Shown here: positions 12,620-12,835 of the stretch, one piece after another | Layout of the letters: the number at the start of each line of letters is the position of its first letter | How positions within the stretch are numbered: position 1 is the stretch's first letter | Assembly: GCA_964373695.1 (NCBI GenBank) | Contig: CAYJVT010000005.1 | Location: forward strand, 21,628-57,909 | DNA length: 36,282 nt | Origin: an uncultured archaeon | GTDB lineage: Archaea; Aenigmatarchaeota; Aenigmatarchaeia; GW2011-AR5 | Reading direction: 5' to 3' | Notes under the pieces: model-generated | Seen by the model: only the letters and a program-made list of their open reading frames with translations | Told to the model about the DNA's origin: nothing | Databases searched by the model: none | Position numbers and translations under genes: made by a program

Positions 12620-12632
12620 GGTTTGATTCTTC

Positions 12633-12733
12633 AAATCTGCAGATTCCACTGCCTTTGCCCAAAAGAATTCCTTGAATTCTTTTGGCAATTCGAGAAAGCT
12701 ACGCTTTCTACGAATCAGACGGTGGTCGTTGAC
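12633..12733 (-). mobile_element. MITE-like element copy 1 with IS200/IS605-type (HEARO/IscB-like) end; interior made of hairpin modules
   Basis: Shares AAATCTGCAGATTCCACTGC (12633-52 = 17668-87) and TCAGACGGTGGTCRTTGACA (12715-34 vs 17759-78) with copy 2. Confidence 0.65.
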
Positions 12734-12835
12734 AGAACAAGGTTTTTTGAGGTCTGTGCAAAGAGCAACCTTTGACATGCCAAAGAACTGAAAGTTCTTT
12801 GGGCATTGAAGGAATTTCATTCCTTCGCGGATTTC
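12734..12835. repeat. Array of short hairpins (e.g. CCAAAGAACT-GAA-AGTTCTTTGG, GAAGGAAT-TTC-ATTCCTTC+GCGGATTTC)
   Basis: Inverted repeats read directly from the sequence; tails resemble those at 19.2-19.4 kb and 23.6 kb. Confidence 0.75.

Follow-up and report, generated by a model that had tools for sequence, protein, structure and literature searches.

REP, BIME and REPIN repeats and the domesticated transposases of the RAYT type have been described as bacterial. Such repeats are short, bulged and imperfect palindromes which lie outside genes in up to hundreds of copies, are organized as inverted doublets and mosaics, vary between strains by whole modules and persist within lineages. The nearest described archaeal analogue is found in Haloquadratum walsbyi. 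PATEs of this organism derive from IS200/IS605 but have no transposase. They carry palindromes close to their ends, lack inverted terminal repeats, use a short conserved target which is not duplicated and show core deletions mediated by repeats. A second repeat, SMR-A, inserts into the near-terminal palindromes of PATEs without duplication and without a known mobiliser (PMC3119063). The present study deals with a window of 36,282 nucleotides (the whole stretch of DNA that was analysed) from an uncultured archaeon of the Aenigmatarchaeota, and in particular with a block of hairpins at positions 12622-12827. In this block, two types of small selfish DNA were found heaped together, namely a PATE-like relic and mini-hairpin modules. 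The hairpin cluster is genuine and clearly defined. It consists of selfish hairpin DNA whose kind is known in part (PATE) and which carries, and is surrounded by, a REPIN-like family.

An initial annotation, made from the sequence alone, had likened the hairpins to bacterial REP/BIME units and had suggested an undescribed archaeal system. The structural likeness was confirmed, as the units are extragenic palindromes which occur genome-wide in inverted doublets and arrays, differ between strains by whole modules and persist in lineages. That the system was undescribed is plausible, because no description of REP/REPIN-like doublets in archaea or in DPANN was found in the literature, but the PATE layer is of a known kind. 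There are also clear differences from the bacterial repeats. The host is an archaeon, there is neither a RAYT-type gene nor a tag of the GTAG/CGTC type, the stems are rich in AT and their 5' arm is rich in purines, and in the genomes searched there is no coupling of abundance to Y1 transposase genes. Moreover, a doublet cannot fold as one long REPIN hairpin, because its two hairpins have stems of different sequence.

Organization of the hairpin block

The window corresponds to contig C5:21628-57909 of a genome referred to here as G000 (1.02 Mb, 60 contigs, 91% complete); the genomes of its relatives range from 0.4 to 1.9 Mb. The block lies in the spacer that extends from the stop codon of a gene for a 904-aa immunoglobulin (Ig)-domain protein (9905-12619) to two tRNA genes (12878-12965 and 12969-13083). 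Syntenic spacers of G000 were compared with 797 kb of a congener, G001, and a further congener, G002, served as outgroup. The components of the block are the following.

12622-12827, unstranded: composite block of 206 bp, which G000 has and which the orthologous spacer of G001, from surface-protein gene to tRNA-Cys, lacks
12630-12634, plus strand: TTCAA, the target-like pentanucleotide preferred at the left flank of PATE family members, from a flank comparison of 18 copies
12635-12734, plus strand: PATE-like, core-deleted IS200-type derivative without transposase; left-end 18-mer at 12635-12652, right-end motif GGTGGTCGTTGACA at 12721-12734
12655-12714, unstranded: mini-hairpin doublet A, made of hairpin 1 (12655-12688, bulge C12658 on the 5' side, outer stem TTG/CAA) and hairpin 2 (12689-12714, bulge A12710 on the 3' side, outer stem TTCG/CGAA)
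12659-12670 and 12674-12685: arms of hairpin 1, 12 bp, exact, 3-nt loop
12693-12699 and 12703-12709: arms of hairpin 2, 7 bp, exact, 3-nt loop
12735-12754, unstranded: spacer resembling the 3' half of a decayed mini-hairpin (AAGGTTTTTTGAGGTC), an uncertain assignment read from the sequence
12755-12806, unstranded: mini-hairpin doublet B of 52 nt, made of decayed hairpin 3 (12755-12777, bulge G12758 on the 5' side, outer stem TGT/ACA) and hairpin 4 (12777-12806, bulge G12803 on the 3' side, outer stem ATG/CAT)
12780-12789 and 12793-12802: arms of hairpin 4, 10 bp, exact, 3-nt loop
12808-12826, unstranded: single mini-hairpin GAAGGAAT-TTC-ATTCCTTC, arms 12808-12815 and 12819-12826, 8 bp, exact, 3-nt loop

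The region 12659-12826 contains four perfect tri-loop hairpins and a decayed one, TGT-G-CAAAG..CTTTG-ACA, in which the inner stem is just 5 bp and the loop 6 nt. Four of the five, as read from the sequence, have a one-base bulge beyond which the stem continues. Both the dense packing of variable-stem hairpins and their extension past a single-base bulge had been recognized in the initial annotation, as had the scaffold TGTGCAAA..TTTGACAT, which is indeed shared between 12755-78 and 19310-36. The recurring tails listed there are real, but most of them are outer stems and linkers. The supposed tail GCGGATTTC is original flanking sequence, present also in the congener that has no block, and no hairpin of this type exists at two of the cited sites, 25.19 kb and 16363-87. 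The folding of the region is far stronger than that of shuffled sequences (z = -5.7 on the plus strand and -5.3 on the minus strand), and none of 200 shuffles folded as well. Chance or low complexity is excluded by these shuffles together with those of the hairpin counts given below.

Comparison with the congener defines the block as a unit. In G001, AATAAGG|CGGATTT comes after the stop codon and the tRNA starts about 60 nt further on; in G000 the same two flanks are 206 bp apart. The parts of the block recur elsewhere. Doublet A occupies the loop of a PATE end hairpin, where minimal PATE copies (17670-17778, and one on contig C9) hold only TTAA; its counterpart in a congener (L007) has the same scaffold with compensated stem changes. 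Doublet B is found in reverse-complement form after a PATE end in G002 (L009), and near-identical matches to its second hairpin exist in other genera and in another family. The single mini-hairpin at 12808-12826 has a copy with 95% identity on contig C3.

The PATE-like element and the IS200-type transposase

The element at 12635-12734 is a non-autonomous, core-deleted IS200-type copy of the PATE kind. About 20 PATE copies exist in G000; complete units measure 100-221 nt, and the full copies of 109-221 nt have both hairpins. The genome has 18 exact occurrences of the left-end 18-mer ATCTGCAGATTCCACTGC and about 24 of the 3' motif GGTGGYCRTTGACA. Directly 5' of the 18-mer, TTCAA is present in 9 of the 18 copies and the remaining copies fit WTYRA. 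By BLAST against the genome, 12626-12717 and the 20-mer 12715-12734 are multi-copy and are frequently located at contig ends. Contigs C3, C10, C12, C16, C20, C29, C40, C41 and C43 end in PATE or hairpin 1; the PATE family is a main source of assembly breaks in G000, and its true copy number is probably above the count.

The window contains a simpler copy as well.

17670-17778, plus strand: second, minimal PATE copy of 109 nt, without mini-hairpin cargo

In this copy and that on contig C9, which are the simplest PATEs and both measure 109 nt, the left hairpin is CCACTGCT-TTAA-AGCAGTGG and the right one CCACCGTC-TTCA-GACGGTGG, followed by TCATTGACA. When compared with the copy on contig C12, the element at 12635-12734 has lost its core, which in full copies lies between the 3' arm of the left hairpin and the 3' arm of the right hairpin; the deletion falls between short TCA repeats. 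The 5' arm of the left hairpin, CCACTGC (12646-12652), now faces the 3' arm of the right hairpin, GACGGTGG (12718-12725). The family shares the features of the Haloquadratum PATEs: its members are too short to code, lack terminal inverted repeats, carry subterminal hairpins at both ends, have a short conserved target without target duplication, are present or absent between strains and likewise include core deletions mediated by repeats. The copy on contig C8, for example, is a clean insertion of 144 nt at TTTAAA, and the site is empty in G001. PATE copies with doublet A were found at no fewer than 10 loci; therefore, the cargo did not block the spread of PATE.

Besides one fragment, G000 has a single intact Y1 transposase gene (C52:1357-1749), which codes for 130 aa with HVH and Y...Q motifs. 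Among named homologues, those nearest to the protein are in metagenome-assembled genomes (MAGs) of Aenigmatarchaeota, which places the organism among the DPANN archaea. The protein scores 97 bits on the NCBIfam profile transpos_IS200 (cut-off 55) and 19 bits on REP_Tyr_transpos (cut-off 80), and its best solved relatives are the TnpA proteins of ISDra2 and IS608 (PDB 2xm3, 2vhg). Judged by its sequence the enzyme is an ordinary IS200-type TnpA and not the RAYT homologue that had been looked for; IS200 is the only subclass that has been reported from Archaea (PMC6006769). With IS200/IS605 elements such as ISDra2 and IS608, the present system shares a 130-aa Y1 core with HUH (HVH) and Y...Q motifs, subterminal hairpins, a left target-like pentanucleotide and the absence of duplication. 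Only the PATE layer belongs to this group, however; the mini-hairpins have neither the sequence nor the hairpin type of the element ends. Mini-hairpins do not flank the transposase gene, which lies between a left and a right end of its own. In its flanks and in those of a 78%-identical Aenigmatarchaeota relative, the left end is AAATCTGAATTCCA...GGTGG and the right end CCACCGTA-loop-TACGGTGGTCAT, which are of the same kind as in PATE. The ends of PATE and those of the C52 element and the relatives L015 and L017 are alike, not identical. No transposase-bearing parent with identical PATE ends was found when metagenome and viral collections were searched with the exact 18-mer; the search gave 77 matches, of which one (L170) is a real PATE and the rest are due to chance.

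Two side observations concern this group of elements. The 5' untranslated region of the transposase (C52, L001, about 1297-1345; L015, about 2935-2990) has an 11-bp long-range stem around a small tri-loop hairpin; it is kept with covarying bases in the 78%-identical relative and probably serves translation control, as in IS200. There are also tiny elements of 36-61 nt (G001 D7, 36; G000 C3:42080, 49; C7:41746, 52; G001 D24, 61) flanked by TTTAAA or TTTAAATC, which consist of one or two hairpins and a ...GACRTTTAAA tail. They resemble minimal IS200-type end relics and are still mobile in appearance.

Anatomy of the mini-hairpin family

Hairpin density was examined in DNA free of open reading frames (ORFs) of at least 110 aa, taken as an approximation of intergenic DNA. 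It contains 94 perfect hairpins (stem of at least 8, loop of 3), as compared with 3.1 +/- 1.7 in dinucleotide shuffles (maximum 8), an excess of about 30-fold; for the whole of G000, the figures are 150 and about 15 expected. A density no higher than in shuffled DNA, which would have refuted the initial annotation, is thus not what was observed. Stems conform to the consensus CARARANC-NNN-GNTYTYTG. As a perfect stem has one and the same sequence on both strands, its 5' arm is rich in purines whichever strand is read. A C-G pair closes the loop in 57-65% of the hairpins and GNA/TNC loops make up 35-37%; in a hairpin-poor relative (G011, 57% of the genome examined, 20 such hairpins in total), both values are 15%. 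The C-GNA-G tri-loop is known as a very stable DNA mini-hairpin motif (PMC13037366, PMC3201870). The over-represented C-G-closed GNA (or complementary TNC) loops recall the d(GCGNAGC) mini-hairpins, but the latter are a motif of physical chemistry and no genetic element, whereas here such loops cap stems of 8-12 bp.

Extension past a bulge was observed in 31% and 43% of the hairpins, as against 10-12% in a flank-permuted control. A bulge on the 5' side is G or T; one on the 3' side is the complementary C or A. Adjacent hairpins follow a nearly strict order, with a 5'-bulged hairpin before a 3'-bulged one in 19, 36 and 27 cases in G000, G001 and a further genome, G005, and the reverse in 0, 0 and 3 (82 versus 3 in total); the same order is seen in other genera and in another family. 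The inner span of the doublets is mostly 44-47 nt. The module is an inverted doublet of one unit type, in a REPIN/BIME layout. An enriched flank motif of the REP type was not found: there is no GTAG-type tag by the mini-hairpins, the information content (IC) of the flank positions is at most 0.27 bits and the conserved signal lies within the stem.

When copies with the same stem and the same flanks were compared, the loop was identical in 73 pairs, the exact reverse complement in 11 and otherwise different in 30. The flipped loops make up 11 of the 41 pairs that differ, represent at least 4 independent events and would be expected by chance in about 1 of 63. Such flips, along with mostly perfect stems, are what template switching within a hairpin would be expected to produce.

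A GC-rich tetraloop hairpin, ACCCACGAC-TTTA/CAAA-GTCGTGGGT, which is found at 13894-13915, in the C15:6347 region of G000 and at C3:21205, belongs to a different hairpin family.

Gain, loss and insertion of modules

Comparison of strains, which had been proposed as a check, revealed that whole modules are gained and lost. Doublets differ between the congeners as clean indels of 52-57 nt in both directions, with polarity inferred from the three genomes. One doublet of G001 and G002 is precisely missing from G000. In all, 32 of 52 spacer hairpins of G000 are missing or gapped in G001, where the adjacent non-hairpin columns are 77% identical. Examples from the window are as follows.

19204-19256, unstranded: mini-hairpin doublet of 53 nt upstream of a ribosomal-protein operon, absent in both congeners in a three-way alignment
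19278-19363, unstranded: three-hairpin block of G000 only, including TGTGCAAAAACC-GAA-GGTTTTTGACA of the initial annotation, absent in both congeners
19364-19390, unstranded: single bulged mini-hairpin, shared with G001 and absent from G002

Neither a target duplication nor a common target was seen at about 10 clean doublet junctions. Several of these events (C7, C14, C6 and C36) took place at hairpin-free sites. Modules also occupy the loop of the left PATE hairpin, that of a second PATE hairpin, the tri-loop of a further mini-hairpin and the centre of an unrelated MITE (a miniature transposable element with inverted repeats) flanked by TA. Insertion into PATE palindromes without duplication is a point of likeness with SMR-A. 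Unlike SMR-A, the modules are doublets of 52-57 nt or singles of 27 nt, are made of bulged tri-loop hairpins with variable stems and are also found far from PATEs; in addition, cargo-bearing PATEs have multiplied, so the PATE is not obviously disabled.

The TA-flanked elements form a second repeat family, that is, double-hairpin MITEs of 92-99 nt which are polymorphic between the congeners and have a target duplication (G000 C1:8600-8700, C4:7713 and C33:5523; G001 D33, D34, D36 and D30). In one G001 copy, a mini-hairpin doublet is inserted exactly at the centre.

Distribution and relation to Y1 genes

The stem motif, in the form of an IUPAC pattern that detects part of the mini-hairpin family only, was found in 24 of the 33 genomes sampled from the family, with 0-65 copies per genome, and one neighbouring family of the order reaches 67. 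Elsewhere in the class it is mostly found 0-2 times, and 0-2 times in controls. The linker CTTTGACATGCCAAAGA (with at most 1 mismatch) occurs in 13 of 61 genomes of the order and in none of the controls, and the doublet layout together with near-identical hairpins and linkers recurs in other genera and families. A strict two-hairpin IUPAC pattern gave 0 matches in viral contigs and is uninformative, since it gave 0 in G000 and G001 too.

Y1 genes are present in 19 of 61 genomes of the order, and motif abundance does not follow them. Five hairpin-rich genomes (G005, G006, G014, G016 and G001) have no Y1 match at E<=1e-5, while four Y1-bearing ones (G255, G220, G023 and G239) have 0-4 motif matches. 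In G005, which consists of two contigs (1.01 Mb) and has 226 tri-loop hairpins, tblastn finds nothing significant for Y1; in G001, with 171 hairpins, the trace is limited to 20 aa. The suggestion that HUH enzymes spread the hairpins holds in part. A Y1 gene is present in the genome and its ends match the PATE at 12635-12734. On the present data the idea does not fit the mini-hairpins, because the enzyme is of the IS200 type, Y1 genes and the motif do not coincide and no parent element is found. The mover of the doublets is probably not the resident IS200 transposase.

Interpretation and alternative explanations

On balance, we lean towards the view that the block is layered selfish DNA which works through single-stranded DNA hairpins. 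In the first layer, the PATE would have kept the subterminal hairpin arms and ends that are recognised by a Y1/HUH transposase and, from what is known of the family, would be or have been mobilised in trans by such an enzyme. The route is probably 'peel and paste', with excision of one strand and insertion 3' of approximately TTCAA or TTTAAA without target duplication. The second layer would be a separate family, whose unit is taken to be a hairpin of 26-28 nt with an outer stem of 3-4 bp, one bulged base, an inner stem of 8-10 bp whose 5' arm is rich in purines (CARARANC), and a loop of 3 nt that is usually closed by C-G. Its usual mobile module would be an inverted doublet of 52-57 nt with the bulges outward. 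Such modules may land in the loops or junctions of other hairpin elements or beside existing units, so that arrays build up. Template switching inside the hairpin in the course of replication is probably what keeps stems perfect and sometimes flips the loops.

It could further be possible, and we offer this tentatively, that the mini-hairpin doublets are an archaeal counterpart of REPINs: long-lived replicators that persist vertically across a DPANN order, are not tied to RAYT/Y1 and owe their movement either to a class of enzymes so far not connected with repeats of this sort or to host replication and repair acting on self-perfecting hairpins. The family parallels the bacterial repeats in structure and lies in DPANN genomes of about 1 Mb; it shows that even extremely reduced archaeal genomes carry layered hairpin parasites and turn them over rapidly. 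The apparent lack of a matching Y1 enzyme raises the question of what moves or regenerates perfect hairpins. There are practical consequences also. The elements break MAG assemblies, with many copies at contig ends, and remodel the spacers of tRNA genes and operons. They can also be misread as regulatory sites, as structured RNAs or as arrays of the CRISPR kind.

Several points weigh against the layered selfish reading. The case for mobility comes entirely from assembly comparison. The 206-bp block itself may represent either a gain or a loss, as the outgroup G002 is rearranged at the locus. No consistent terminal motif or target sequence was found for the doublets, nor an autonomous parent bounded by doublet halves: in three genomes, lone 5'- and 3'-bulged hairpins 0.3-3.5 kb apart gave 2 intervals with no shared ORF family. 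A hairpin has few free positions, so identical stems at separate sites may arise by chance. Intergenic DNA was approximated as described above, and the compared genomes are mostly incomplete MAGs, in which repeats and insertion sequence copies are often lost, which weakens the statement 'no Y1' except for the two-contig G005. The related genomes are non-independent samples, and orthologous mini-hairpins of G000 and G001 are too few for a covariation rate.

A full REP/RAYT-type system, in which a single Y1/HUH enzyme resembling a domesticated RAYT acts on PATEs and mini-hairpins alike, both recognising and spreading them, seems unlikely, although it is the strongest of the alternatives. One intact Y1 gene per genome is typical of RAYTs, bulged hairpins are the kind of substrate that Y1 enzymes act upon, inverted doublets are REPIN-like, and the indels are precise and free of duplication. 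Doublets also sit within PATE end hairpins, and the PATE copies with such cargo still multiplied. Set against this, the protein is of the IS200 type by its scores (97 versus 19 bits), by its solved relatives and by the subclass known in Archaea. The GC-rich tetraloop hairpins at the ends of its gene are unlike the AT-rich bulged tri-loop units, no conserved tag stands beside the hairpins, and hairpin-rich genomes without a Y1 match exist beside Y1-bearing ones nearly devoid of the motif.

There is little probability that the hairpins are structural elements of the host, such as elements for transcript 3' ends or stability, terminators, insulators or protein docking sites, which are kept by selection and not by mobility. 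They do occur in non-coding DNA by gene ends, tRNA genes and an operon leader, have T-rich 3' arms on both strands, keep perfect stems despite sequence change and persist as a family over an order. However, more than 60% of them turn over between congeners whose flanks are 77% identical, genera within one family have anywhere between 0 and 67 copies, and the equivalent spacer of G001 functions without hairpins. Hairpins are also located inside other mobile elements, no Rfam family matches, and the loop flips and C-GNA-G loops suggest DNA and not RNA. A role at the RNA level may exist and would tell against the selfish reading as well; sense-strand mismatches were G-T in 6 cases and A-C in 3, a small sample in which there is no clear sense-strand G-U bias.

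Equally improbable is an origin without transposition, in which hairpins arise and multiply in place by replication errors (fold-back priming, or template switching between similar hairpins) and arrays accrete around a first hairpin. The loop flips are evidence of template switching within hairpins, many new units adjoin or lie within existing hairpins, and no target consensus, duplication or mobilising gene was found. Yet doublets appear with clean junctions at hairpin-free sites, the modules have a fixed size and a fixed bulge order, and the conservation of stem consensus and linkers across genera and families fits template copying better than de novo origin. The remaining candidates can be dismissed briefly: a CRISPR-like array is rejected as the units differ from each other and lack repeat-spacer order, a classical DDE cut-and-paste MITE by the absence of duplication at the doublet junctions, and a known RNA family because only tRNAs reach the Rfam gathering score, the best other match being an unrelated long non-coding RNA model with E = 0.44.

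Other features of the window and its relatives

The window has four tRNA genes of 88-121 nt (12878-12965, 12969-13083, 15546-15666 and 35150-35259), all of them intron-bearing. Rfam detects all four, and ARAGORN detects one, the first, which is tRNA-Cys. Inserts of 29-34 nt were found exactly between GGTTCGAA and TCCC of tRNA T-loops (G000 C2:53232 region; G001 D35 and D32). They are present in one congener and not in the other, have a small hairpin of their own each and resemble non-canonical introns that come and go. In G001:C33 (L022, about 2440-2660), several mini-hairpin units precede the 3' part of the tRNA that follows tRNA-Cys, replacing the 5' half known from G000; the intron may be very long, the tRNA may be split or its gene may be disrupted.

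In the ribosomal-protein cluster, a 256-nt stretch at 21528-21783 (C5:43155-43410), bounded by the 11-nt direct repeat GGAGAGGGAAG, is present in G000 and not in G001. The leader of the ribosomal-protein operon contains, at about 19137-19175, a hairpin CCAGTTCTC-AGAG-AGAATTGG that is retained in G001 and shows compensated changes in G002 (CCGGCTTCC..GGAAACCGG), and it may be a regulatory leader structure.

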